Origin: a virus
Taxonomy: Duplodnaviria > Heunggongvirae > Uroviricota > Caudoviricetes
DNA length: 26,287 bases
Reading direction: 5' to 3' (one strand)
Virus record (IMG/VR): IMGVR_UViG_2531839144_000012
Coordinates: 1 to 26,287 of that record
A program made the position numbers and the translations under genes. The first letter of the stretch is position 1, and every line of letters starts with the position of its first letter. Below the pieces are notes generated by a model. It was not told the DNA's origin. It was given only the letters and a program-made list of their open reading frames with translations, and did no database searches. This document shows, one piece after another, positions 1-26,287 of the stretch.

Positions 1-339
1 TTATAATTTGTTACTGTGCCACTCAAGGGCAATATCTTTGAAGGTGTTGTTTAACTGCGTTTCCCGGGCAATCTTTTCCTCTCGCTTCACTTCCATCAGA
101 TCGATTCCCCCAGAGATACCTCTTTTAGCTTCTTCAAGTTTTGCAGGAGCATCAGCTAAGGTGACCTCAGGATACACACCTAGTGCTAACAGCTTCTCTT
201 TACCAGCTACACGATACTTGAGACGCCAATATTCTCCTCCACCAGGTTTTACCAGGAGGTACAGACCACCACCATCAGCCAACTTGTAAGCCTTCTCTTT
301 TGGCTTGGCAGTGTCTATTTGACGGGCATTGAGTTTCAC
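1..339 (-). CDS. int: Tyrosine integrase, N-terminal part only (P4-type arm-binding domain); gene continues beyond window start
   Basis: Translation KLNARQIDTAKPKEKAYKLADGGGLYLLVKPGGGEYWRLKYR matches the conserved N-terminal domain of P4/CP4-57-type integrases; apparent GTG start at 339..337, upstream in-frame stop at 357..355; sits next to a tRNA 3' fragment. Confidence 0.8.
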   Translation of the reverse strand: MKLNARQIDTAKPKEKAYKLADGGGLYLLVKPGGGEYWRLKYRVAGKEKLLALGVYPEVTLADAPAKLEEAKRGISGGIDLMEVKREEKIARETQLNNTFKDIALEWHSNKL

Positions 340-493
340 TTGGGGGTATCTCCACTAAACTGAACAGCAAATCCCCTCAATTGCTTGTAGAGTTTGGGGT
401 ACTTAAATAGACGTCAAAAGACTAAAAGGGGCATTAATATACTGATTATAAGAGGTTTTTAAATACTTGAGTAGACTTGGGGAGACGTTAGAA

Positions 494-539
494 TGGTGCC
501 GATAATAGGAGTCGAACCTACGACCTTCGCATTACGAAT
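494..539 (-). other. tRNA 3'-end fragment (tRNA-Thr-like: anticodon loop TTCGTAA, variable loop, T-arm GGTTCGACTCC, acceptor 3' strand, CCA) = probable phage attachment core (attP or attR); not an intact tRNA
   Basis: Minus-strand read ATTCGTAATGCGAAGGTCGTAGGTTCGACTCCTATTATCGGCACCA has canonical T-loop, 5-bp T-stem, 7-nt acceptor strand and CCA; no D-arm or 5' acceptor strand upstream; matches my recollection of E. coli thrW 3' half. Confidence 0.6.
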
Positions 540-615
540 TATAAGAATCCGCTGCTAATTCAAAGTATTATCCCATCAACACTGCGCTCACACGTCCCAC
601 CACATCAAAACATGT

Positions 616-675
616 AAAGCCTTGCAAGCCATTGCGAGGCCTTATGTGTCTCAGTTTTGTCCCACCTTGTATTAC
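616..675. repeat. Copy 1 of a ~60-bp imperfect direct repeat; contains a 9-bp-stem hairpin (GCCTTGCAA-GCCA-TTGCGAGGC, 619-640) followed by T-rich tract
   Basis: Aligned by eye to 5128-5186 with about 7 differences over ~60 nt. Confidence 0.7.
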
Positions 676-1006
676 GACTTGCATAGCCAATGAAGATAAA
701 CGTGACGACAAACGGCGCAGCAGTCTTCTTTTCCTTCATACTTTCCCCATCCAGCATGCATACCTTTATGCCATAACTGAAGTTTATGTCTGTTATGAGC
801 GAGAAGCGGAAGTTCAACGTGATAAAGCTCAGGAACATTGTCGTTGATGATGATAAAGAGGATCAGACTAACTTAGCACTTCTCATCACGTTGATAAGGC
901 ATAGAAACCGAAAACACTATTGTGAATATCATTTCACTATAGTAAATTCAGGTAAGCTCTTTTCGTTCGTTATTACATAAAATAAAGTTCTCTCTAAGGT
1001 TGAAAA

Positions 1007-1450
1007 ATGTTAGATATCAGAATGTCACGACCATCTGAAGCATCAGAGATCATACAAATCTGGAAGAGTTCAGTGGATGCTACCCACGACTTTCTTACAG
1101 GTCATGACCGACAAGAAATCGAAAAAGAAGTTATCGGCTTTTTCTCAGAAACTCCTGTATGGGTTGCAACAAATCAGGATGACCAACCGCTAGGATTTAT
1201 GTTTTTGCATGAGGGGCATCTGGAGGCACTTTTTGTAGCAGGCTCTGCTCGCGGACTTGGCGTCGGAAAACGTTTGATCTCTCATGCACTGGCGCTGCAT
1301 CCAGAGCTAAGCGTTGATGTAAATGAACAAAACCAGCAGGCTGTAGGGTTTTATCAGCATATGGGTTTTCAGGTATCAGGGCGTTCCGAGCTGGATAATC
1401 AGGGAAGGCCATACCCCTTGTTGCATCTGAGAATGGCCAATAACATGTAA
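1007..1450 (+). CDS. GNAT-family N-acetyltransferase
   Basis: 147-aa ORF; acetyl-CoA-binding-type motif region LFVAGSARGLGVGKRLISHA and C-terminal GFYQHMGF typical of GNAT fold; alternative start ATG at 1022. Confidence 0.7.
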   Translation: MLDIRMSRPSEASEIIQIWKSSVDATHDFLTGHDRQEIEKEVIGFFSETPVWVATNQDDQPLGFMFLHEGHLEALFVAGSARGLGVGKRLISHALALHPELSVDVNEQNQQAVGFYQHMGFQVSGRSELDNQGRPYPLLHLRMANNM

Positions 1451-1470
1451 CCAATGTGGCAGAGAAGATA

Positions 1471-2055
1471 TCATTGATTTTTTTGGCTAAAAGCCACGAT
1501 GTAAGAACAGCTCTGCTCACTATCTGGATTGCTCATTTGGTACTCGCTTGCAAAGGTAAGGGCAAGACAGTCACCGGCACGTAAATGATGGGTCTGATTT
1601 TTGACTCGAAAATCAAGGCTGCCACTCATCATCCAAAGCGTTTGCCCGGAAAGATGCTCATTTGCGGAGGCGGGTATCGTCAGCTCACCCATTGCAGGGA
1701 TTTCAACTTTGATCAGTTCCGGGCATGCCCCCGCAGGAGACAAAGACCAACGGGTGATGCCTGATTGCTCATCCGTCCAGTGCTGTTGCTGATGAGCAAC
1801 ACGAACCAGGGAATTCTGATGTTGCTCAAGCTCTGCAAAGAGTTTAGATAGCGTTACATTCATGGCGTTGGCCAGGCGGCTAAGGATAGTTGCACTAGGG
1901 CTGGAGATGCCTCGTTCAATCTTACTAATCATGGCCTGACTGACGCCCGATCGTTGAGCAAGCTCTGTTACAGTCAAATTGCGAGCCTTCCTGTGTTTAA
2001 GCAATAAACGTGCAATATCGCTATCTACTATCTGATTTTTAAATTTTTTATCCAT
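1471..2055 (-). CDS. XRE-family HTH transcriptional regulator with C-terminal cupin-like domain
   Basis: HTH motif LTVTELAQRSGVSQAMISKIERG near N-terminus when started at MDKKFKNQ (ATG 2055..2053, preceded by GAGAGGG Shine-Dalgarno); the ORF track extension to 2238 lacks an RBS and looks non-coding. Confidence 0.7.
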   Translation of the reverse strand: MDKKFKNQIVDSDIARLLLKHRKARNLTVTELAQRSGVSQAMISKIERGISSPSATILSRLANAMNVTLSKLFAELEQHQNSLVRVAHQQQHWTDEQSGITRWSLSPAGACPELIKVEIPAMGELTIPASANEHLSGQTLWMMSGSLDFRVKNQTHHLRAGDCLALTFASEYQMSNPDSEQSCSYIVAFSQKNQ

Positions 2056-2359
2056 TTCCGCCCTCTCTTTCACCAACCTGATTATGCCATTACATAAATT
2101 GGCCTGAAATAAATGATTTTGTAAGTCTGTAAATTCACTACTCCTAAGCGCGGCACTTCGTTTATACGCACCTATGACCTTAAAATATGAGTTGGTAAGC
2201 TTAACGTCCGCTTTTGGCACATAGCAGACCAGAGACACTGGCGTAAAGCCATGGAGGATCGGTGGGAGGAGGTAAAAATCCTCTCATGCAAAAAATACGC
2301 AAAATCGATAACAGTTGGAAATCATTCAATACTCGCACTATCGGAAGTTCACCAGCCAG

Positions 2360-2393
2360 TCGTAGCACGTTCTTGCATACGACGTGGCTACGG
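2360..2393 (+). promoter_or_regulatory. Hairpin H1: 5-bp + bulge + 5-bp stem with 11-nt loop TCTTGCATACG
   Basis: CGTAGCACGT / ACGTGGCTACG pairing seen directly; homologous to hairpin at 3381-3412 with compensatory stem substitutions. Confidence 0.45.
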
Positions 2394-2487
2394 GTTTCGA
2401 GACCGACCCGATCATCAAACGAAACATAAAATTAGCTCACATTATGAGGAAAGGTATCTTTTGCGCTATGTAAATTCAAAGGGTTAG

Positions 2488-3357
<870 letters not shown>

Positions 3358-3380
3358 GTATTCAATTGATAAGATTAAAC

Positions 3381-3412
3381 CGCAGCACGTTATTGCATAC
3401 AACGTGTCTGCG
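3381..3412 (+). terminator. Hairpin H2 (CGCAGCACGT-TATTGCATACA-ACGTGTCTGCG) followed by TTTT; candidate terminator for the GIY-YIG-like gene
   Basis: Stem-loop and downstream T-run seen directly; same architecture and loop motif as H1. Confidence 0.45.
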
Positions 3413-3904
3413 TTTTCAACTCCGCCGCCCCCTATCATGATTGGACAGCACTTGCAAAAAAAAGAAATTAGTATTCTCCGCAGGACACCGGTCAGATAGT
3501 GCGGCAGATCAATGTCTGGTGAATATTGATGACCGCTGCCCGCTGATTCTATTGCCGAAACTGTGCGGGAAAAGATGTGGCAAGATATTGTTGGTAAAAA
3601 ATTCTCAGCGACTTTATGCCAGCAAATCAGTTTGCCTGGCATCCAGTATCGTGTGCGGTGGATAATGTCAAAAAACATGGGGAGTCGATTAAACAGGTAT
3701 AATCGTTAAAAACCTTCAAACTCCAGGCAAAACCCTATTTCATAGAACATGTACTTTCATCTGGTATACATGAACGAATTATGACTGCGTTAGTAAAATT
3801 ATCCTGGTTAAATTACAGGCAGAGATATATGTTCCAGTCCAGTGCGTTTTCGTTTACAATATTTATCTTTCATTATCACTTGACTTTATTAAAAGAGGTT
3901 CGTT

Positions 3905-4972
3905 GTGACGAATGTTTTTGGGAAGAGAATATATACACTGGATGTTCTGAGAGGATTTGCCGCACTTTCCGTTGTGTTATGGCATTGGCAACATTTTTTT
4001 ATGAAAAAGAATGCTGCATCTGACATAATCATAAACCGCCAACCTTTTTATGAATTTTTTTCCGTCTTTTATCATTACGGTTTATATGCTGTCGAATTGT
4101 TTTTTATGATTTCTGGATTCATATTTTTTTATCTATACGCTGACAATATACACAGCAATAAAACCTCAGCAAAAACTTTTATAGTTAACCGTGTCAGTAG
4201 ATTATATCCACTTTATATATTTACATTTGCTGTCGTGGCAATATTACAAATTATTTTCTTTAAAAGTCATAATTATTTTTTTGTTTATCCTATGAATGAC
4301 ATTTACCATGCCATTCTGAATTTATTGATGATTCAATCATGGGGATTTGAGCGAGGTTGGTCCTTCAACGCCCCGACATGGTCCGTGTCGATTGAAGTAC
4401 TTATGTATATGATATTTTTTATATTATGCAAGTTCACATCAAAAACAACATTCATATCAATTTTAATAGTTGCATTGTCGTACTACTTTTTCAAAATTAA
4501 CAATCCCATAATGATCGGCGCATTCTCTTTCTTTATTGGTGGTCTGACCTATAAAATTACGATTGCGGCCATAAAAAATATTAGCGCAAAGTTATTTTTT
4601 ATTTTTGCTTGTGTTTTTCTATTGATCTCATGGGGAGTTATCTTTACCCTGCAAGTAGCAGATATATTCTCAATTATCTTATTCGGATTTACCTCCATAA
4701 TCTTTTTCCTTGTATCAATTAGCGCAATACGAAACGATTTTGGAAAAAAAATTGAATGGTTGGGTGATATCAGTTATTCATCTTATCTTTTACATTTTCC
4801 TTTGCAAATCATTGTTGTTTATTTAGCTGACAAGATTGGCTATGGACGCGATCTTTTTTACAGCCCCAAGGTATTCATTTTATTCATGCTTACATTAATG
4901 GCAATTAGCTATATGTCATATATATTCATTGAAAAACCATCGCAACAATTCATCCGAAATAAATTTCATTAA
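3905..4972 (+). CDS. Acyltransferase-3 family integral membrane O-acyltransferase (OafA/Oac-like; candidate O-antigen/surface polysaccharide acetylase, lysogenic conversion gene)
   Basis: 355-aa highly hydrophobic multi-TM protein; N-terminal LDVLRGFAALSVVLWH and VELFFMISGF motifs typical of acyltransferase_3; GTG start with AAGAGG RBS; strongly AT-rich relative to the phage structural genes; position between tail fibre and att as in Sf6 oac. Confidence 0.8.
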   Translation: MTNVFGKRIYTLDVLRGFAALSVVLWHWQHFFMKKNAASDIIINRQPFYEFFSVFYHYGLYAVELFFMISGFIFFYLYADNIHSNKTSAKTFIVNRVSRLYPLYIFTFAVVAILQIIFFKSHNYFFVYPMNDIYHAILNLLMIQSWGFERGWSFNAPTWSVSIEVLMYMIFFILCKFTSKTTFISILIVALSYYFFKINNPIMIGAFSFFIGGLTYKITIAAIKNISAKLFFIFACVFLLISWGVIFTLQVADIFSIILFGFTSIIFFLVSISAIRNDFGKKIEWLGDISYSSYLLHFPLQIIVVYLADKIGYGRDLFYSPKVFILFMLTLMAISYMSYIFIEKPSQQFIRNKFH

Positions 4973-5127
4973 GTAAAGTCACTTTGCAATGATTAGAGTC
5001 AACACCTATTACTTTGACTCTAATCACACTGCATTTTATCCGTATGCTCTATATTCATAAAAATCGACATCAATATATAGAATGGAAATAAACGAAACCG
5101 CGTCACATCCTCAATATAGAAGCGTTC

Positions 5128-5186
5128 AAAGCCTTGCAAACCATTGCGAGGCTTTATGTGTCACAGTTTTGTCCTACTTTTATTAC
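5128..5186. repeat. Copy 2 of the ~60-bp imperfect direct repeat; hairpin GCCTTGCAA-ACCA-TTGCGAGGC (5131-5152) then TTTATGTGTCACAGTTTTG
   Basis: Aligned by eye to 616-675; lies between convergent acyltransferase (+) and tail fibre assembly (-) genes, so likely also a terminator. Confidence 0.7.
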
Positions 5187-5232
5187 ACAAAAAGAATTGA
5201 GTTACAATTAAACCGCTTCTCCTCAACAGATT

Positions 5233-5649
5233 TTATTCAGCGAAGCACGGTTCATCCGGCCACTCAATATCCGGTGCAATGCTGGTATCTGTTGCCGTCA
5301 CAGCCTCGATATAATCCAGCACAACGTTAAGTCGGGTAGTTTCTTCTTGCGTCAGTTTGCGCCCGGCCTGCAGCTTTAACTGAATCACGCTGATATTAGC
5401 CATTGCTGCGTCTGTCAGCGACTGTTTTTTCTGTTCAGCGTCAGCTACCAGTTCATCATGAGAACGTTCCGGAGTGGGTGGTGCAGTAAATCCCCCGTCT
5501 GAATACACCCAGCCGATTCCGGGCTGCTCACTGATATCAGAAATATTAATGAGCTGCTGATTATCCGGCACTGTGAATTCAGCCTCGCCATCCCAGACAA
5601 TGACATTCACAACCATCCCATTTTCAATAACTGCATATGACGCATTCAT
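5233..5649 (-). CDS. Tail fibre assembly protein (Tfa)
   Basis: Start [11 protein letters not shown] (ATG 5649..5647) overlapping stop of upstream tail fibre gene; sequence and position typical of phage tail fibre assembly chaperones. Confidence 0.7.
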   Translation of the reverse strand: MNASYAVIENGMVVNVIVWDGEAEFTVPDNQQLINISDISEQPGIGWVYSDGGFTAPPTPERSHDELVADAEQKKQSLTDAAMANISVIQLKLQAGRKLTQEETTRLNVVLDYIEAVTATDTSIAPDIEWPDEPCFAE

Positions 5650-6575
5650 TATGCAAACTCCTCGATAATACAAATTCCAGCAGCACCTTTCCCGCCCGTC
5701 ATATTAGTTCCGCTATAACCGGCATCGTATGCACCACCGCCACCTGAACCATATGCCTTACCGCTAACACCACCGCCAGCGCCTGCGCGTCCACCGCCTC
5801 CCCAGTACGATGCACCACCTTTACCGCTGACGCCGATATTCCCGGACTGACCGTCGCCTCCATCTCCACCAGTGATGCGGATATCGCCAATATTCGGTAC
5901 GCCTCCGTAACCACCGTTTGTGTTTGTGATTCCTGGTTTTCCGGCACCTTCACCTCCTGGAGCAATTAACGATGAGAACGAGCTATCACCTCCCTTGTAA
6001 CCCACTGACGCACCGACACCGCCTCCACCGCCTGCACCGATAACGACAGGATAACTATTCTCTGTCAGGGTCATTGTTGAAATAATTGTTCCACCTGCTC
6101 CACCGCCTGCACCAAAAAACGTTTCGTTACTGGATGCTGCTTTGCATCCGCCTCCTCCGCCACCGCCGCCCGTTATTGTGACCCTGATCCGTTTTGTTCC
6201 TGGTGTCGGGGTGTACGTACCTGATGACGTGAAAACCCGGGTATTCACCAAGCGTCCCACGTATCCGCTTGTATCTCCCAAACCAAGGTTTTGAAGAGCC
6301 GTTTTCACCGTGCCGTCCGATTTGATATCGCCAAACGGATTTTTGCGACTTAACAGCAGCGCGCGAAGCGCGGTAAGCAGCTGGTCATGCCGCCCCTTCT
6401 CCAGGCTGGCACCGGATGCCTCCACCACGCTGCAGAGCTCTTCCTGCAACATGTCAAAGTAGTCATCATCCAGATCGGTGGCAGGCGAGCCTGTCTGGGG
6501 GTTACCACGGGTAAAACCGTTCTTACCCGCGCCGAACTTATCCTTTTGCGCGGTTTTCGTGTCTATACGATGCAT
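5649..6575 (-). CDS. Tail fibre protein with glycine-rich (collagen-like) repeat region
   Basis: Conserved phage tail-fibre N-terminus [26 protein letters not shown] followed by long Gly-rich tract; located between baseplate genes and Tfa. Confidence 0.7.
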
Positions 6576-6578
6576 GGA

Positions 6579-7163
6579 TTACTCCGGATATTTAAAAATT
6601 ACGTAGGTATGCGACGGGCAGAGTTTGTTAAGCACGCACTCGATAACGGTGTCCCCCCAGATACGCAGTGCGGAATCGCAGGGATCGCCACATGTCATCC
6701 ATGTGGTGTTGGTGGCAGCTGGCATATTGACCTGCCAGTAATACCGCCATTCCGGCGCATTCACCGCGTCAGTACAGGCCGATGAGCAGGTGAACGTGCT
6801 TTTGTCGTATCGCGTGATGGTGGCATCTGGTCTGCCCAGGGCAGCAAGCTGCGCAAGGTAAAAATCCTCATTGATGCCACCCGCCAGGTTAACCTTCGCA
6901 TCCAGCCGTTGCTGACGCTGGCGAAGGGTCTGCGTCCCTGCCGGAATACATTCATCCGGCAGGCCGCACAGACGCTCCCAGCGGTTTATCAGTTCGGTGG
7001 TGGTGCGCGGATCCAGCTCCCGCATCAGGGCATCCGCACGCTGATGAGCACGGGTTAATGACGGTGCCGCACCGGCAATCGCCGGATCGCTGGCTGACCA
7101 CGCCGGACCAGGGGGCAACAGTGCCGACAACAGACGGATGTAATCATCGTTTGTCACGTCCAT
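6579..7163 (-). CDS. Mu gp48-like baseplate/tail protein (DUF2313, YmfQ-like)
   Basis: 194-aa ORF immediately downstream of baseplate J gene in Mu-type order; sequence recalls YmfQ/DUF2313 family. Confidence 0.65.
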
Positions 7164-8212
7164 GAAATCGTCCCCAGAACCGCCAGTTCATTTTTTGCAA
7201 TGGAGATATTGTCCGCCGGAGCAAGCAACTGATGGCTGTATTCCCCGTTCGCACCGGAAATCGCTTCACTGATACGCGATACCTTAAGCTCTCCCTGCGG
7301 ATAACCATCACGCAGCAGGAATGAACGCAACTCCGCGGTGATGGCAGCCCGTATTTCCGGTGTGTCCGGCGTCACGCGGATATGAAAATCCACTTTGTGC
7401 GCCACCGGCCTGAATACATACAAATCAGAGCCTGCCACCGGGGCCAGTGGCTCGATATGTTGTCTTGCCGCCGTTTCCGTTGATTCTTCCGGAATGGGGT
7501 TAATCAGGTCACTGCTGGCAATCATCACACCGACAGTCCCCGTTCCCATCCAGTGTCGGTATGTCCATGCGCGGGTAATGCCGGGCACTTCTTTAGCCCA
7601 GACGACATAGTCCCCGTCAGCCCCGCCCTGAGGCGTCCAGTAATACCGCTCAATGACGCGGGCGCGCCACGTTTCCAGCTCTTCAGTATCAAATCCACCT
7701 GTCAGGGTATCTGCCTCGCCGGAAGACGGCAGACCATTAACCGGCGTGACCAGGATTAATGACGTACCGTCGTCAGCGTTACCGACCGCGCCTGCACTTG
7801 AGCAGGCGATCGGCACGCGCAGGACACCACCGGTGCTGGTTGCATCGGCAGTTGCCGTGTACTGAACCAGGTCATCGCGCTGAATAACACTTCCGGCGGT
7901 CACCTTCAGGCCATCGCTGACACCTTCCCAGCGCATATACCCGCTGGCAGCCGTGGCCCCCTTGCGCGGACACCGTTTCATCGCAGCATGTCGCGCCAGC
8001 CAAGACTCATCGCACAGGTCAGGCAGCATGTTCATTGCCAGATAATCGATGTACCCGTAAACCGTATGCAGCGCCGCCGCATACACCTTTGCCCGCACGT
8101 CTTCATCCATGCGCCGGAGCGTGTCGCTGACGTCCAGCCTGGCGAATAAATCGTTACGGAGCATACTGATATTTTCTGCCAGCGTCGGGCGCTGAAATTC
8201 ACTGTCCGCCAT
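7154..8212 (-). CDS. Baseplate J-like protein (Mu gp47 homologue)
   Basis: 352-aa ORF in conserved Mu tail gene order; overlapping start/stop with neighbours. Confidence 0.75.
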
Positions 8213-8627
8213 GCGTTATCGCACTCCACAGATCATCAAAAGAAATCATTACCGGTCCGTCACGACGCCAGAGAGTGATACTGTTACCCAGTTCATTAAT
8301 CCCGGTGCGGCGGATATCCAGATCAATACGGGACACCACGCCGTCATCAATCATCCATTGCAGGCATTCGCGGATATACCCCCTTACCGTCTGCACCAGT
8401 TGATTGGTCAGTTTGCTGCGCTGAAGCAGCCACAGTCGGGAGCCGTAACGGTCATTCTGTACCGCAGGCCAGGTATCCCCCCACCATCCCATCGGGAGAT
8501 CAGCGTTGTCATCAGGCTCCGCCCGCCGCCAGGTAAACAGGGAAATCACCACGGCGCGGGTCAGCGGATCCAGCTGTGCGCTGGCGCAGGTGCGTTTACC
8601 GTTCACCGTCAGCCACAGTTCCATCAT
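8199..8627 (-). CDS. Mu gp46-like baseplate protein
   Basis: 142-aa ORF between baseplate V and baseplate J homologues, as in Mu. Confidence 0.6.
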   Translation of the reverse strand: MMELWLTVNGKRTCASAQLDPLTRAVVISLFTWRRAEPDDNADLPMGWWGDTWPAVQNDRYGSRLWLLQRSKLTNQLVQTVRGYIRECLQWMIDDGVVSRIDLDIRRTGINELGNSITLWRRDGPVMISFDDLWSAITHGGQ

Positions 8628-9172
8628 GCCTCCATCGCTTTATCAGGTTTGTCGGTGTTACTGCCCTGACCGTTCTCTCTGTGACAATGCCCGTTATAGG
8701 CAAGCCGCATCGCTGACATGGTGGTACCGCCGGAGTCGCACAGGTCTTTCACCTGTCCGGTCACTTCCAGGTCCATTTCAAAACGTGCTCTGGGCGCATT
8801 GCGAAACGTGATCGTTTTACCTGCACCGTCCACCACGATCCCCTCCCGGGTCAGCGTCACAGACTGCCCCTGATCGTCATAGACAGCCACCTCACCCGTC
8901 TGCAGCCCTTTCAGGCGGTAGCGCCGGTCCGACACCGTAACAACCACCGCATGAGAACGGTCGCCATCCGGAAACAACACCACCGCTTCCGCACCGCTGT
9001 TTGCCCTTGCGGTAAAACCGTAGGGTTCAAGATGTTCAACCCCGGCTTTGGGTTCACCGGCAATCAGGGACACATCCACAGTCTGACATTTCGTGGCGGC
9101 ACTGATGCTTTTCACCACTGCCCGCCCAATCAGGCCGAGAAGTTGTCGCTGCATGGCTTCAATCGTCCTCAT
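8624..9172 (-). CDS. Baseplate assembly protein V / spike (Mu gp45-like)
   Basis: 182-aa ORF in Mu-type order; translationally coupled to neighbours. Confidence 0.65.
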   Translation of the reverse strand: MRTIEAMQRQLLGLIGRAVVKSISAATKCQTVDVSLIAGEPKAGVEHLEPYGFTARANSGAEAVVLFPDGDRSHAVVVTVSDRRYRLKGLQTGEVAVYDDQGQSVTLTREGIVVDGAGKTITFRNAPRARFEMDLEVTGQVKDLCDSGGTTMSAMRLAYNGHCHRENGQGSNTDKPDKAMEA

Positions 9173-10251
9173 CAGAACGGGTCCTCCTGTACTCTGGCTT
9201 TTTTCTTTTTCCGCGCGCCGGGGGCTTCGGGTTCAGGCAGATAAGCATCAGGTGGGCCGACACGGATTTCCGTCAGGGTGCCGTTCTGGTCCTGAGTAAA
9301 CGTGACTTCCGAGACAAGCAGTTCGGTATTGTCGAAACCACAGACCGGATCGAAGACAATCACCCGCTGGTTGGGCTGCCACAGCGTACCGTTACCCTGT
9401 CGCCAGCCCTGCACCACATAGGTGGTTTCATCCGTCCGCGCCGCCCGTTGTCGGGCTTCAAAGTCAGCACGCGCAATACAACCTGCCCCCGTGGCCTGCC
9501 CTGTCTGCCTGATATACATCGGACGGTAACGGGCAATAAATGCGTCCTCTGTGCGGGCCCGCAGCGCGGTGGTGGTGGCTTCACCGAAATCATCGTCGTT
9601 TCCGGCACGCTGCCCCGCCACCTGGTAAACAGAAAACCGCTCCCGGATACTCTTCTCCGTATCGCAGGAAAGGATGTTTTCCCCGAGTACCAGCGCAGTA
9701 TGTGCCCGCGTTGAGCCAATACCGCCAATCACCAGCCTGCCGTGCGGGTCGTCGTAAGCCAGTGCCTGCTGCTGACCGAGTATTTTGTTGATTACCTCAA
9801 TCACCGTTTCACCGTGATCAGGCTGAACATCAGGAATAACACCCGACGGCGCACCGCTGTTCACCACCTCAATGCCGAAAGGCGCAGCAAGCGCCTGCGC
9901 AATCTGCACCAGCGAGCGTCCGTTAAACTGTGTCGGTTCGGCTGCACAGTCAATCAGGTCAGCCGTCAGACTGCGTCCGGCAATACCGGTGCTGACCGAA
10001 CGGGAATCGTAACGAACGGGCGTCGCCTCCACCCAGCCGGTGATCACCAGCTCATCACCAATCAGCACTTCCACTTTTGAACCGTTTTTAATGCGCGGCT
10101 GAAGCGTGGTGATACCCTCATCTCCCGGCCACTGGCGGGTGATCTCCACACTGAAATCCCGCGCCAGCCGTTCAATACCGGCACCGATGCGCACCGATGT
10201 CCAGCCATTCCACTCCCGGCCATTTACCCGTAGCGTGACATTGTCGTTCAT
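9172..10251 (-). CDS. Mu gp44-like tail/baseplate hub protein (late control D-like)
   Basis: 359-aa ORF between DNA circulation protein and baseplate V homologues. Confidence 0.6.
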   Translation of the reverse strand: MNDNVTLRVNGREWNGWTSVRIGAGIERLARDFSVEITRQWPGDEGITTLQPRIKNGSKVEVLIGDELVITGWVEATPVRYDSRSVSTGIAGRSLTADLIDCAAEPTQFNGRSLVQIAQALAAPFGIEVVNSGAPSGVIPDVQPDHGETVIEVINKILGQQQALAYDDPHGRLVIGGIGSTRAHTALVLGENILSCDTEKSIRERFSVYQVAGQRAGNDDDFGEATTTALRARTEDAFIARYRPMYIRQTGQATGAGCIARADFEARQRAARTDETTYVVQGWRQGNGTLWQPNQRVIVFDPVCGFDNTELLVSEVTFTQDQNGTLTEIRVGPPDAYLPEPEAPGARKKKKARVQEDPF

Positions 10252-11576
10252 TGCACTGGCACCTTCAGAGGGATCACCGGCACAAAGCCGGGATGCGTAA
10301 TGGCATTACGCCGGATAATGTCCGCGTCACGCGCCGCATTATCAAACCAGGTCGCCGCCAGCACCAGCGCGGGTAAAACCTCATCCGGCGTGCGCTGAAT
10401 GATCCGTGCAGACTGTTCAAGGCGCGTGTTGATATCCGCATTCAGATCTGCTTTCACCCGGCGCAGCGCCAGAAACAGCGCATCACTGGTTGTACGGGAC
10501 AACTCCTTATCAATTGCCGTATTCAGTGTGTCGCGAATGTCAGTCAGTTCTTCCCACGTCGGCAGGTCAACCGTGCTTTTCACCGCCGGAGCATTGTTCA
10601 GTGCCGGATGCGTGACGGAAGGCCAGTCAGTGCTCTGCGCGGGTGTTGTTGCCTGCCCCACTGCGGCATTCTGCATCACCGCGGAAGTTGTTGGCGCAGG
10701 CAATCGGGTGACGGCATACGCCGCTTCGCTGATTGCGGTCGTACGAAGGGTGCTGGCAACCACATTACGCTGCTGCGTAGCCGTGGCGGTGGTTTTACTG
10801 TCCGTTTTCCAGACGCCGCGCGGTTGCAGATCGCTGCCGAGGCTGACACCGGAAAGCGTTTTGATCATGGTGACCAGGTCGCTGGCGTTACCATAAAGGC
10901 GTTTCCCGGTACGCCACATTTTCTGCACCTGCTCAACGAAATTTTTGCCTGACCATGGCGGCGGCAGAAGTACCGAGATATCCCCCTGCAACAGCCTGGC
11001 GGCATCCGATACGGCAGAATCCACCACTTTCATCGCATCAGAAACATACCCAAGCATTGTGCCGGCATTACCGACGACGTCGTTCTGCACAAAATCTGCC
11101 ACGCCATCGATACTGAAACTACTGAAACTGTCACTGATGCAGTCATCCAGTGCAGAACAGGATGACATCAGCGTCTGCGCCGTCGCCGCACCTGATGTGG
11201 GGTAAGAGAGTTCTCCCGCTTCGACAAACTTCAGGTCAAAGCGGACAATACGCCCTTCACTCTTCGATGTGCTGACCCGAACCTCTCCGTCAACACAGAC
11301 TTTCAGCTCACCGTAAGTCGGATGGACAAGCGTGCCGGGACCGGGTTTATTCAGCGCGTCAATCAGGCGATCGCGCTGGTCAAAGCAGTCATCTCCCACC
11401 ACATAAGCTGTGATGGACGGGCGGAAAGTGATTTTCCCCAGGTCTTCGGTATAGGGTTTGTCGCGGTTCGGGTATTCGTGCGTTTCCACACGACGACCGG
11501 TTCCCGTACTTTCTTCTTCAACCTTAAACGGCACACCGCGAAATGACGCGTCCTGAAGTCTGTCTTTCCACGTCAT
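10248..11576 (-). CDS. Mu-like DNA circulation protein (gp43-like)
   Basis: Start taken at MTWKDRLQDASFRGVPF (ATG 11576..11574, GGAG RBS upstream); immediately downstream of tape measure. Confidence 0.7.
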   Translation of the reverse strand: MTWKDRLQDASFRGVPFKVEEESTGTGRRVETHEYPNRDKPYTEDLGKITFRPSITAYVVGDDCFDQRDRLIDALNKPGPGTLVHPTYGELKVCVDGEVRVSTSKSEGRIVRFDLKFVEAGELSYPTSGAATAQTLMSSCSALDDCISDSFSSFSIDGVADFVQNDVVGNAGTMLGYVSDAMKVVDSAVSDAARLLQGDISVLLPPPWSGKNFVEQVQKMWRTGKRLYGNASDLVTMIKTLSGVSLGSDLQPRGVWKTDSKTTATATQQRNVVASTLRTTAISEAAYAVTRLPAPTTSAVMQNAAVGQATTPAQSTDWPSVTHPALNNAPAVKSTVDLPTWEELTDIRDTLNTAIDKELSRTTSDALFLALRRVKADLNADINTRLEQSARIIQRTPDEVLPALVLAATWFDNAARDADIIRRNAITHPGFVPVIPLKVPVQ

Positions 11577-24077: not shown

Positions 24078-24626
24078 ATGTTTGATTTTACTCATTTTGA
24101 AGAGTTGACTTTAGCATCACATCAACCCGATAGAATAATGACTATAGTTCGGTCCCAAGATGACATTGGTATCTATCTCCGCACTCACCTTTTGATTGAA
24201 CAAATCTTGGAAGCTTGGATTATCTGTGCCTCTGGTAACAGGGATTTCTTCAGCGGTTTTGGCGAAAATATCAACATGGATTTTGCCATTAAAGCTCAGC
24301 TTGCGATGAACTATGGTATGAGCTCAGAGCTAAACAAATTTATTCGAAGGTTCAACAACTTCAGAAACAAACGTTCACATCAAATTAACAACTCTGACAT
24401 CACTAACAGTGAGATTGACTCCTTAACAAGTCTAATGGAGCACGGTTACCCTGATAGCTTGACCCCCATTAGAGATTTTAAGCTTGGGGTTTACGGAGCA
24501 GAAACTAGGGTTGTAAGTTTCACGGGATCCTCTACAAGCTTACGCGATAAGCTCATTATGTTATTCGCTATGTTTTCCATGAGGGTACATTACGAAGCAA
24601 AATGCTTAAGCACGCCACAGAGCTAG
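24078..24626 (+). CDS. Hypothetical protein with Rx4H (HEPN-like) motif; first gene of AT-rich two-gene insert
   Basis: 182-aa ORF with AAGGA RBS; motif FRNKRSHQ; opposite strand to flanking phage late genes; AT-rich. Confidence 0.55.
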   Translation: MFDFTHFEELTLASHQPDRIMTIVRSQDDIGIYLRTHLLIEQILEAWIICASGNRDFFSGFGENINMDFAIKAQLAMNYGMSSELNKFIRRFNNFRNKRSHQINNSDITNSEIDSLTSLMEHGYPDSLTPIRDFKLGVYGAETRVVSFTGSSTSLRDKLIMLFAMFSMRVHYEAKCLSTPQS

Positions 24627-24704
24627 GCTCTACTTTGATGCTCTAATAACATTCGATTATTTGCATTTCCTGTTGCATTAGCGACCTGCCATTGAGGAGT
24701 AAAA

Positions 24705-25265
24705 ATGATCCATACGGTACATTTTTTGACAGATGTTACAGTTGCCTCTGTAACTAATCTGATGGATGTCTGCTTAAAAGCAGTTTCAAATACTAATCAA
24801 CCAGCAACAGAAATTAAGCTCTATATTTCCAGCAAAGGTGGAGATACAGTTTCAGGCTTTACTGCTTACAATTTTTTAAAGTCACTTGGTGTAAAGGTTA
24901 CTACGCATAACCTCAGTAATGTTGAATCAATCGCAAACGTGATCTATATGGCTGGAGAAGTGCGAACTGCCAACCCACTTTCTCGCTTCCTTCTTCACCC
25001 ACTGCATTGGGGGTTCGCCGCACCCAGCGCAGATCACCTACGATTGAGAGAATGGGCTTCATGCCTCGATGACGATCTAAATCGATTTATTCAAATCATG
25101 GATATTGAAACAAAAAAGAAAAATCCAAGTGAGATTGCTGATTGGAAGGATTTGATCACTTCGGCAACCATCCTTCATCCCGGAAGGGCCTCCGAGTTGG
25201 GAATTGTTCATCAAGTCGAGGCTGCAACCATACCCACGGAATCGATCCGCTGGTGGGTACTTTAA
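24705..25265 (+). CDS. ClpP-family (S14-like) serine protease homologue, short form
   Basis: 186 aa; aligns by eye to E. coli ClpP core: IKLYISSKGG vs IYLYINSPGG, Ser in NVESI vs QAASM, His in LLHP vs MIHQP, Asp in KDL vs RDRF; GAGGAG RBS. Confidence 0.65.
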   Translation: MIHTVHFLTDVTVASVTNLMDVCLKAVSNTNQPATEIKLYISSKGGDTVSGFTAYNFLKSLGVKVTTHNLSNVESIANVIYMAGEVRTANPLSRFLLHPLHWGFAAPSADHLRLREWASCLDDDLNRFIQIMDIETKKKNPSEIADWKDLITSATILHPGRASELGIVHQVEAATIPTESIRWWVL

Positions 25266-25286: not shown

Positions 25287-25313
25287 GCGGGCTTAGAAGC
25301 CCGCTCTTTTTTT
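25287..25313 (+). terminator. Rho-independent terminator (GCGGGC-TTAGAA-GCCCGC + TCTTTTTTT) between convergent ClpP-like and Rz1 genes
   Basis: Perfect GC-rich stem and 7-T run seen directly; Rz1 stop codon lies in the loop. Confidence 0.6.
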
Positions 25314-25550
25314 CTCAGCCTGCCTGATATCAGCCTTATCCCGATTGCACTGGCCAAGTGCCGATAGCAGACTGACATTTAAATTAAGACTATTACCCCA
25401 TGTCATATTATCCGGAATGTCAGGATAAGGCGTTTCAGCCGTCAGGGTGGCTGGTAACGGAACCACCGGAATGCTCACGTAAACTGTTCGCGTACTTCCG
25501 CAACCGGTCAGCAGCGGCAGCAGGCACATGACGTGAAGCACAATCATCAT
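25293..25550 (-). CDS. Rz1: o-spanin (Rz1-like outer membrane lipoprotein), overlapping Rz
   Basis: Start at tandem ATGs 25550/25547; signal peptide with lipobox LLTGC; Pro-rich mature region; begins in the +1 frame inside Rz and extends past it. Confidence 0.6.
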   Translation of the reverse strand: MMIVLHVMCLLPLLTGCGSTRTVYVSIPVVPLPATLTAETPYPDIPDNMTWGNSLNLNVSLLSALGQCNRDKADIRQAEKKRAGF

Positions 25551-25827
25551 CCGCAACAGCCACTTTGATATCTTCCTGGGTTCTCTGTGACTCCAGTGTG
25601 ATCTGCTGTTTTGCATGCTGGTTAGCCTCCAGAACTGTATTGACGATTTGCAGTGATTGCAGGACGTTATTGGTAATGACAGTTGCCGATTTGGCATTTT
25701 GTACAGCCTCATCAGCACGTTTCTTTTCGTGCTGATATTTGCTGTAGTAGTGGTTGGCAGACCAGATGAAAGAACCGATGACAGTAAAGAAGAATGCAGC
25801 GATAACCAGCTTATAGCTCAACTTCAT
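25435..25827 (-). CDS. Rz: i-spanin (Rz-like)
   Basis: 130-aa protein with N-terminal TM helix and coiled-coil-like periplasmic domain; immediately downstream of endolysin. Confidence 0.7.
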   Translation of the reverse strand: MKLSYKLVIAAFFFTVIGSFIWSANHYYSKYQHEKKRADEAVQNAKSATVITNNVLQSLQIVNTVLEANQHAKQQITLESQRTQEDIKVAVADDDCASRHVPAAAADRLRKYANSLREHSGGSVTSHPDG

Positions 25828-26287
25828 TTACCACCCCACCAGCCTCTTTAAACCGGGAAATCAGGTCACTGATTTTATGTTCATACTGACCATAACCTGC
25901 ACCAGGTAACGACGCCCAGATATTGCTGCAACGATCGATAGCCTGACGGATATCACCGCGATCAATCATCGGTAAAGCGCCACGTTCTTTAATCTGCTGC
26001 AATGCCACTGCGTCCTGGCTTTTGGGGGAGAAGTCTTTCAGGCCAAGCTGCTTACGGTAAGCATCCCACCAGCGTGAAAGAAGCTGATAACGTCCGGCTG
26101 CTGTTGATTTGAGTTTGGGGTTTAGCGTGACAAGCTTGCGAGGGTGATCGGAGTAATCAGTGAAGAGTTCTCCACCGACAATAACATCATAACCGTGGTT
26201 ACGTGTCGGTTGTCGCCCGTTATCCGTTCCTTCTGACCATGCCACCATATCGAGGAAAGCTTTACGCTGAGGATTAAGATTTTGCAT
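25811..26287 (-). CDS. R: Endolysin, lambda R-like lytic transglycosylase
   Basis: 158-aa translation near-identical along most of its length to my recollection of lambda R (QRKAFLDM.AWSEGTDNGRQ.TRNHGYDVIVGGELFTDYSDHPRKLV...); ATG is the last three bases of the window. Confidence 0.9.
   Translation of the reverse strand: MQNLNPQRKAFLDMVAWSEGTDNGRQPTRNHGYDVIVGGELFTDYSDHPRKLVTLNPKLKSTAAGRYQLLSRWWDAYRKQLGLKDFSPKSQDAVALQQIKERGALPMIDRGDIRQAIDRCSNIWASLPGAGYGQYEHKISDLISRFKEAGGVVNEVEL

Follow-up and report, generated by a model that had tools for sequence, protein, structure and literature searches.

The window analyzed here, a 26,287-nt stretch of Caudoviricetes DNA (IMG/VR record IMGVR_UViG_2531839144_000012), carries the 3′ end of a tRNA-Thr gene between the start of an integrase gene and a block of cargo genes. 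Very probably, this fragment is attR, the junction at the int-distal end of an integrated SfV-like temperate phage, which forms part of a tandem array at the thrW hotspot. An earlier, sequence-only reading had weighed a free or circular phage genome with its attP against a second int-bearing element in tandem downstream of the prophage's attR. The tandem arrangement is the one borne out: the flank left of the core is 100% identical to a chromosomal allele in which an int remnant precedes thrW, homology to the SfV attP arm starts at 492, and in relatives the SfV-type integrase lies at the far prophage end beside an intact thrW. The free attP fails because the integrase beside the core is not that of the phage: it is of another family, a remnant of 112 codons from the vat islet. 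The main parts of the junction are as follows.

1–339, minus strand: P4-type tyrosine integrase remnant, arm-binding domain only (GTG start 337–339, stop 1–3, 112 codons)
340–493, minus strand: int-proximal arm of the presumably older element's att site (attL-type, P4-type integrase), 100% identical to EcN
494–539, minus strand: att core, the 3′ 46 nt of thrW (positions 31–76), read here as attR of the SfV-like prophage
540–664, no strand assigned: phage-derived arm of attR (P′ arm, the gtrA-side arm of an SfV-type attP), from the 96.5% SfV match over 492–664

A Core Identical to the 3′ End of thrW

On the minus strand, 494–539 reads ATTCGTAATGCGAAGGTCGTAGGTTCGACTCCTATTATCGGCACCA and matches positions 31–76 of an intact 76-nt tRNA-Thr(CGT) at 46 of 46 bases, the reference being an ARAGORN-called gene of a related E. 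coli (L004 1742–1817). Two bases beyond the CCA also match, which extends the block identical to intact thrW to 48 bp (492–539), and at position 540 the aligned window sequence departs from thrW. The sequence-only reading was thus right that just the 3′ ~46 nt of a tRNA-Thr are present; compared with host tRNA genes, as it had proposed, the core is an exact match to the 3′ end of E. coli thrW. It had also allowed for a tRNA 5′ half immediately beside the fragment, and searches with ARAGORN and Rfam found none: ARAGORN called no tRNA in the whole window and there was no Rfam tRNA match in 1–3000 at E ≤ 1, where the sole Rfam match, to CssrB, is not significant (E = 0.53). A complete tRNA or a concealed 5′ half is thereby ruled out, for the window by ARAGORN and for 1–3000 by Rfam.

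The 48-bp core is present as a single copy (blastn-short, E = 1.6e-23), and the same search gave no further copy of it within the window. An intact tRNA-Thr and a second core copy, which the sequence-only reading had suggested looking for, would both lie outside the window, and both are seen in relatives. The 46-base att core of SfI, SfII, SfV, SfX and P22 has been published (PMC3636060), and the 46-nt core of the window is identical to it.

Flank Homologies Meet in the Core

The Nissle-type chromosome EcN_Sk is 100% identical to window 1–539 and then continues with the 5′ half of thrW (local blastn). SfV (U82619) matches window 492–664 at 96.5% identity (local blastn), in the region between int and gtrA, and left of 492 has its own integrase in place of the window sequence. 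The two homologies share just 492–539, the 48-bp core, and flank homologies that meet solely in the core are the signature of a hybrid attR. The same phage-side arm also occurs in strains a15, 2009C-3133 and Z247. Conversely, the counterpart of the SfV attP int-side arm is found in the a15 prophage, on its thrW-proximal (attL) side, and not in the left flank of the window.

We then joined window 1–539, the missing part of thrW and the flank with proA into an empty-site query of 902 nt. Several genomes contain it at 100% identity across all 902 nt, and it is covered to at least 80% in 707 of the 5426 complete E. coli genomes; in this empty-site allele, the 112-codon int stub lies 154 nt from intact thrW, which is followed by proA. 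The junction itself (window 400–700, at least 80% coverage) is present in 144 of the 5426 genomes. The entire window was found in no complete E. coli genome of the collection, the best matches reaching 90% coverage at ~97% identity.

The complete arrangement is seen in strains a15 and 2009C-3133, where a prophage of this type stands at the corresponding junction. In both, the order is P4-type int (full length in a15, a stub in 2009C-3133), 48-bp core, cargo, Mu-like baseplate and tail, HK97-type head and terminase, followed by lysis and early genes, xis, SfV-type integrase, intact tRNA-Thr and proA-proB. Two copies of the 48-bp core bracket the prophage, 41.2 kb apart in a15 and 38.6 kb in 2009C-3133, a spacing that fits SfV-like genome sizes, and the second copy lies within the intact thrW beside the cognate phage integrase at the far prophage end. 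The window is limited on the left by the stop codon of the stub and on the right inside the lysis genes, so that the phage integrase and the intact thrW fall beyond it; its own contig presumably continues past both edges as the relatives do.

A metagenome contig provides a further copy of the same prophage end with identical cargo order (L097 9467–20444, 98.1% identical to window 472–11447). The match begins 20 nt left of the core, and beyond it lie genes for NleG, OspG-like kinases and sulfite-reductase-like proteins; the integrase stub is absent from the L097 neighborhood left of the core.

The Neighboring Integrase Is a Remnant of the vat Islet

The minus-strand ORF at 1–339 contains a Pfam Arm-DNA-bind_3 domain (PF13356, E = 9e-24, residues 3–88) and aligns with P4 Int and 79 relatives. 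The sequence-only reading had placed the start of a P4-type integrase here; the P4-type N terminus stands, and the gene is in fact a 112-codon remnant. The C-terminal catalytic (Phage_integrase) domain is absent, the ORF ending at codon 112. Homology to the full-length 404-aa int of E. coli a15 ends at about window position 1–6, which makes the stub a deletion remnant and not a gene merely cut by the window edge; past this point, vat-islet strains have unrelated AT-rich DNA. RefSeq annotates the stub as a pseudogene with its C terminus missing. It carries the changes R to P, R to L and P to L at positions conserved in nearly all aligned relatives, and it keeps a Shine-Dalgarno sequence, a start codon and one cognate GGGGGTA site.

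In EcN, the gene order is yagU, hypothetical gene, integrase remnant, IS1 remnant, vat (S6 peptidase), MarR-type vatX, Arm-domain stub, tRNA-Thr and proA, and the counterpart of window 340–493 sits between the int remnant and intact thrW. A vat island between yagU and proA at thrW has been described (PMC6592367; Parreira and Gyles 2003). In the assembly collection, ~46,000 blocks list the exact 112-aa stub. Ten contexts were sampled, and in every one the stub is followed by vatX, vat and yagU; toward thrW, it is bordered either by proA itself or by inserted elements of various kinds. Where the thrW site beside the stub is not empty, elements of at least four kinds have entered it independently: SfV-like prophages, prophages of the lambda type, a CbtA/CbeA-carrying CP4-like island, and an element that combines phage capsid genes with a DUF6538-type integrase.

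Near yagU, a distal direct repeat of the vat islet was sought in EcN and 2009C-3133, and nothing above 9–12 nt, the chance level, was found. Among EcN, 2009C-3133 and a15, only the intact P4-type element of a15 showed a distal repeat. There, where the P4-type integrase is intact, a third, shorter repeat at the far end reads AATGGTGC-GATAATAGGA (~19 nt, one indel) and adjoins a lysR fragment and paoD (L089 5005–5024). This imperfect ~19-nt copy of the 3′ end of thrW closes the a15 P4-type element, so that the locus holds three thrW-derived repeats in a row. This short repeat places the P4-type core within the last ~19 nt of thrW, and the fragment in the window therefore holds both cores, its final ~19 nt being also the core used by the P4-type element. 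The a15 element itself, of ~18.5 kb, encodes P4-like functions, namely a TOPRIM/DUF927 primase and Ash, together with P22-like DNA-ejection proteins and an Abi protein (L003 1–9573). Lacking both a catalytic domain and a distal repeat, the islet is no longer mobile by means of its own integrase.

Proposed Sequence of Insertions and Its Alternatives

The locus would have been assembled in two steps. An element with a P4-type integrase would first have inserted at the 3′ end of thrW and would then have decayed to the vat islet, giving yagU, int′, IS1′, vat, vatX, 112-codon stub, thrW and proA in this order. Later, the SfV-type integrase of the phage would have recombined its attP, which carries a 46-bp copy of thrW 31–76, with the still-intact thrW. 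The phage's 46-nt copy would now complete thrW at the far prophage end, beside the phage int and proA, and the displaced original 3′ end would stay joined to the islet, with phage cargo on one side and the dead integrase on the other. The 154 nt from the stub to the core would be what is left of the P4-type att arm. A step of this kind has been shown experimentally for SfI, which inserted into the thrW attL of a resident SfX and left an internal copy of the core (Sun et al. 2011, PMC3306764).

The two 46-nt copies do not differ, and the core itself therefore gives no indication of which insertion came first. We infer that the islet came before the phage, as argued by the dead integrase, by the widespread allele with stub and intact thrW, and by the varied elements found beside the stub. 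The reverse order, in which the phage came first and the P4-type element later entered the displaced 3′ fragment, is very improbable. Such an entry could have used the P4-type core, which, at the ~19 nt of the a15 distal repeat, is short and lies wholly inside the 46-nt fragment and is thus a possible target. However, the stub has no catalytic domain and carries substitutions at otherwise conserved positions, 707 genomes have the same stub, with the same breakpoint and up to 100% identical, beside an intact thrW, and the stub adjoins at least four unrelated kinds of inserted element. A stub found beside intact thrW so widely, and with such varied neighbors, indicates an old, fixed islet with repeated later arrivals.

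Stub and arm might instead have been captured into the phage genome from the vat islet to give a phage-borne hybrid att region: aberrant excision is known to capture flanking DNA, and the window starts exactly at the stop codon of the stub, with nothing visible further left. We consider this origin highly unlikely, since the linkage of the exact stub to vatX, vat and yagU holds in all 10 of the sampled contexts, window 1–539 is without substitution relative to the EcN chromosome, and close relatives with the same cargo have other left flanks, which break at the core or ~20 nt to its left (the match to the window starts at 472 in L097 and at 492 in both Z247 and SfV). That the window is an unintegrated (circular or packaged) phage genome, with the fragment as attP between the phage's own int and its conversion genes, has next to no probability: the order int, core, cargo superficially resembles int, attP, gtrABV of SfV, but the neighboring integrase is of another family than the SfV-type integrase of this phage type and, as a 112-codon remnant, is neither complete nor cognate, homology to SfV attP begins only at 492, and the stub and its 154-nt spacer are 100% identical to the chromosome of prophage-free strains, where they adjoin intact thrW and proA.

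Arm Repeats in the Spacer between Stub and Core

With an SfV-like prophage standing in tandem beside the vat islet as the preferred reading, the spacer at 340–493 can be compared with the att arms of other P4-type elements. The repeats recognized in it are as follows.

340–348, minus strand: putative P4-type arm repeat, inverted copy, int-sense TACCCCCAA
368–380, minus strand: putative collapsed tandem arm-repeat pair, one degenerate copy, int-sense TTGAGGGGATTTG
387–392, 407–412 and 471–476, plus strand: three RTCTAC-type repeats, a pattern common to relatives

The comparison covered 80 loci with relatives of the full-length integrase (61%–97% aa identity), and the spacers of 79 of them were compared. 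Nearly all of the loci have an intact tRNA on the same strand, usually 164–166 nt upstream of the int start. The target is tRNA-Thr-CGT for relatives at or above 71% aa identity and Arg-TCT, Gly-CCC, SeC, Ser-TGA, Phe or Arg-CCT for more distant ones. In the int sense, the spacers of relatives follow a common plan of three or four RTCTAC-type repeats, a tandem pair, a Shine-Dalgarno sequence and an inverted copy. The tandem pair, GGGGG(T/C)A-n5-GGGGG(T/C)A with a 12-nt period, is present at 65 of the 79 loci. After ~27 nt come the Shine-Dalgarno sequence and then the inverted (T/C)(A/G)CCCCC just before the start codon, which is present at 60 of the 79 loci, counted as a CCCC run no more than 8 nt from the start codon. 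At nine loci, all three copies are exchanged together, for GTATAG, GTATAG and CTATAC.

The window departs from this plan at the tandem pair. The counterpart of 368–380 in relatives reads GGGGGTAnnTTnGGGGGTA, with a 12-nt period, and the alignment shows a 12-nt gap relative to a15 at this point; a loss of 12 nt from the pair accounts for the spacer of 154 nt in the window as against 164–166 nt in most relatives. The inverted copy is kept, and 340–348 separates the Shine-Dalgarno sequence GGAGATA from the GTG start. The P4 record annotates 12-bp "attP arm sequence repeats" with the sequence TGGGGGCATAAT, two of them in tandem at 3942–3965, one inverted over the int start at 3915–3926 and two on the other arm. 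Window 340–348 has the same position and orientation as the P4 repeat at 3915–3926.

An int gene beside attL with a promoter region that overlaps the arm sites and is repressed by the integrase together with the excision factor is an established arrangement, as for IntS of KplE1 (PMC2951348). A study cited there (Piazzolla et al. 2006) reportedly found the same for P4 Int and Vis.

The sequence-only reading had pointed to repeated G-runs upstream of int as possible arm-type sites. Their positions are as it gave them, with GGGG runs at 342/343, 396, 428 and 479. The plus strand of the window has 39 runs of at least four Gs in 26,287 nt, four of them in this 154-nt stretch of 38% G+C, a density unmatched by any span of that length elsewhere in the window; of the 10 TTGGGG occurrences in the window, three are here. 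Such clustering places the G-runs above chance. As arm-type sites they fare unevenly: 340–348 matches the P4 arm repeat, whereas those at 396, 428 and 479 are conserved solely among the closest relatives (such as E. ruysiae L008) and are absent at the same positions elsewhere, so that their role is uncertain. Furthermore, the main tandem pair of the family lies on the other strand and was missing from that reading.

Arm Motifs Pair with Residues of the Arm-Binding Domain

The arm motif of a locus goes together with residues in the N-terminal domain of its integrase. GGGGGTA pairs with (Y/F/H)LL and KEKL, GGGGGCA (P4 included) with YL(E/Q) and KEKR, and GTATAG with S(L/I)L and K(P/T)KM. Counted across 79 relatives without correction for shared ancestry, the pairing at these two positions is without exception in the pure-motif classes and is found inside each of six tRNA target groups. 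A change of motif and residues in concert, as seen by sequence comparison, supports the repeats as predicted binding sites of the arm domain; the coding sequence of this domain adjoins the sites, and co-inheritance as one module could contribute to the pairing. A literature search for covariation of arm sites and arm domains (DUF4102, arm-type) found nothing specific, although such covariation may nonetheless be published. Should the pairing hold experimentally, it could help to predict att arms and the compatibility of satellites. It would be a long shot that the stub, if made, acts in trans on the arm sites of incoming thrW-targeting P4-type satellites, in interference or regulation. More broadly, and no more probably, the pairing might be read as a recognition code of the arm domain.

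Cargo and Late Genes

The genes to the right of the core divide into a cargo region and a late region.

616–680, no strand assigned: hairpin-containing element of ~65 nt, with a direct repeat at 5128–5190
1007–4972, no strand assigned: cargo (moron) region, where SfV has gtrABV (Pfam, PHROGs)
1007–1450, plus strand: GNAT acetyltransferase (Pfam)
1471–2238, minus strand: HTH/cupin regulator (Pfam)
2533–3357, plus strand: LEM-3-like GIY-YIG protein (Pfam)
3905–4972, plus strand: Acyl_transf_3 O-acetyltransferase-type protein (Pfam, PHROGs)
5233–26287, minus strand: SfV-like late region (Pfam, PHROGs, nucleotide identity)
25293–25718: Rz/Rz1-like lysis gene
25811–26287: endolysin, a lysis gene at the right edge

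The cargo noted beside the core in the sequence-only reading is present as described, at 1007–4972. PHROGs matches within it are to O-acetyltransferase phrog_3333 (1.5e-40) and O-antigen acetylase phrog_6705. The two copies of the ~65-nt element (616–680 and 5128–5190), which were also found by local blastn and share ~84% column identity in the alignment, bracket the cargo between the att arm and the tail-fiber assembly gene, and a GC-rich, terminator-like stem lies at 619–640. The left copy is also found in SfV, and part of window 605–802 matches phage 21 and lambda variants at ~89%. Scans of 1–5700 for promoter and terminator consensus sequences gave counts at or below shuffle expectation and were not used as evidence.

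Within the cargo, the GNAT gene and the convergent HTH/cupin regulator form a cassette of ~1.44 kb (788–2229) that recurs at 99.4%–99.7% identity in mobile elements of unrelated kinds, namely in P2-like prophages, in lambda-like thrW prophages, in CP4-like islands and in this SfV-like phage; in the P2-like prophages, it lies between the sheath and tail-fiber genes. No convincing terminal repeats that would explain the mobility of 788–2229 were found. A further ~90 nt (2296–2385) are 84% identical to sequence near ykgJ/yagU in EcN and 2009C-3133, and they overlap the non-significant Rfam match (2361–2412, E = 0.53) to the Shigella sRNA CssrB.

The late region encodes tail-fiber assembly, a Mu-like baseplate, sheath, tube, an HK97-type head, portal, terminase, HNH and lysis functions. 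It is ~96.6%–98% identical at the nucleotide level to annotated E. coli thrW prophages, and its baseplate genes are ~96% identical to those of SfV, SfI, SfII and SfIV. No phage integrase was found inside the window with Pfam or PHROGs. Two genes at 24078–25265 (plus) run against the late operon and separate the HNH/terminase block from the lysis genes; they encode a phrog_5483 protein, whose function is not known, and a protease of the ClpP type (PF00574, E = 2e-12). Their position resembles a second moron slot, in which the a15 and 2009C-3133 prophages have other genes.

Consequences for Annotation

The main value of these results lies in correct annotation, and nothing here is new in kind. 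The prophage boundary is placed at 492–539, the ORF at 1–339 is a gene of the vat islet and is to be kept off the phage gene list, and the real integrase of the phage is expected ~12–16 kb past position 26287. Such a locus would be misread by programs that call prophages with an integrase plus a tRNA fragment as the end marker. More broadly, thrW gathers elements successively, for example SfV-like, lambda-like, DUF6538-type-integrase and CP4-like ones beside one and the same stub.

Comparison with Known Systems

Each component of this locus is already known, namely the SfV-group core at thrW, the tandem occupation of thrW, the vat islet and the P4-type arm repeats. Like the thrW att sites of SfV, SfI, SfII, SfX and P22, the window has the identical 46-base core, and as in the SfV group, O-antigen-modification or other cargo genes lie directly beside it and the phage int at the opposite prophage end. 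The cargo itself differs, being gtrA-gtrB-gtr(type) in SfV and a GNAT protein, an HTH regulator, a GIY-YIG protein and an Acyl_transf_3 protein here. On the bacterial side of attR lies the integrase stub of another island, in contrast to yaiC in Shigella (PMC3306764).

The tandem of SfI at SfX is a further close parallel (PMC3306764). There, likewise, the newcomer uses the reconstituted intact thrW beside proA, and an internal core is left between the elements; however, the resident is an inducible phage, whereas here it is a decayed islet with the remnant of a P4-type integrase and a different, shorter core. Compared with the vat island (PMC6592367), the 112-aa stub of the window is the thrW-proximal gene of the islet. 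The window differs in that only the 3′ 46 nt of the tRNA lie beside the stub, with the prophage splitting thrW, and in that vat itself falls outside it.

With P4 Int and attP (NC_001609), the older element shares an N-terminal arm-binding domain and an int start ~150–165 nt from the tRNA 3′ end. The 12-bp G5 arm repeats of P4, a tandem pair and an inverted copy over the int start, recur in the family to which the stub belongs. The motif is GGGGGTA here and GGGGGCA in P4, and the window retains only a stub and a collapsed tandem pair. The target is thrW here and not that of P4, which we take to be leuX, and on the int-sense strand the P4 core closes with GGCACCA, as the 3′ end of a tRNA does.
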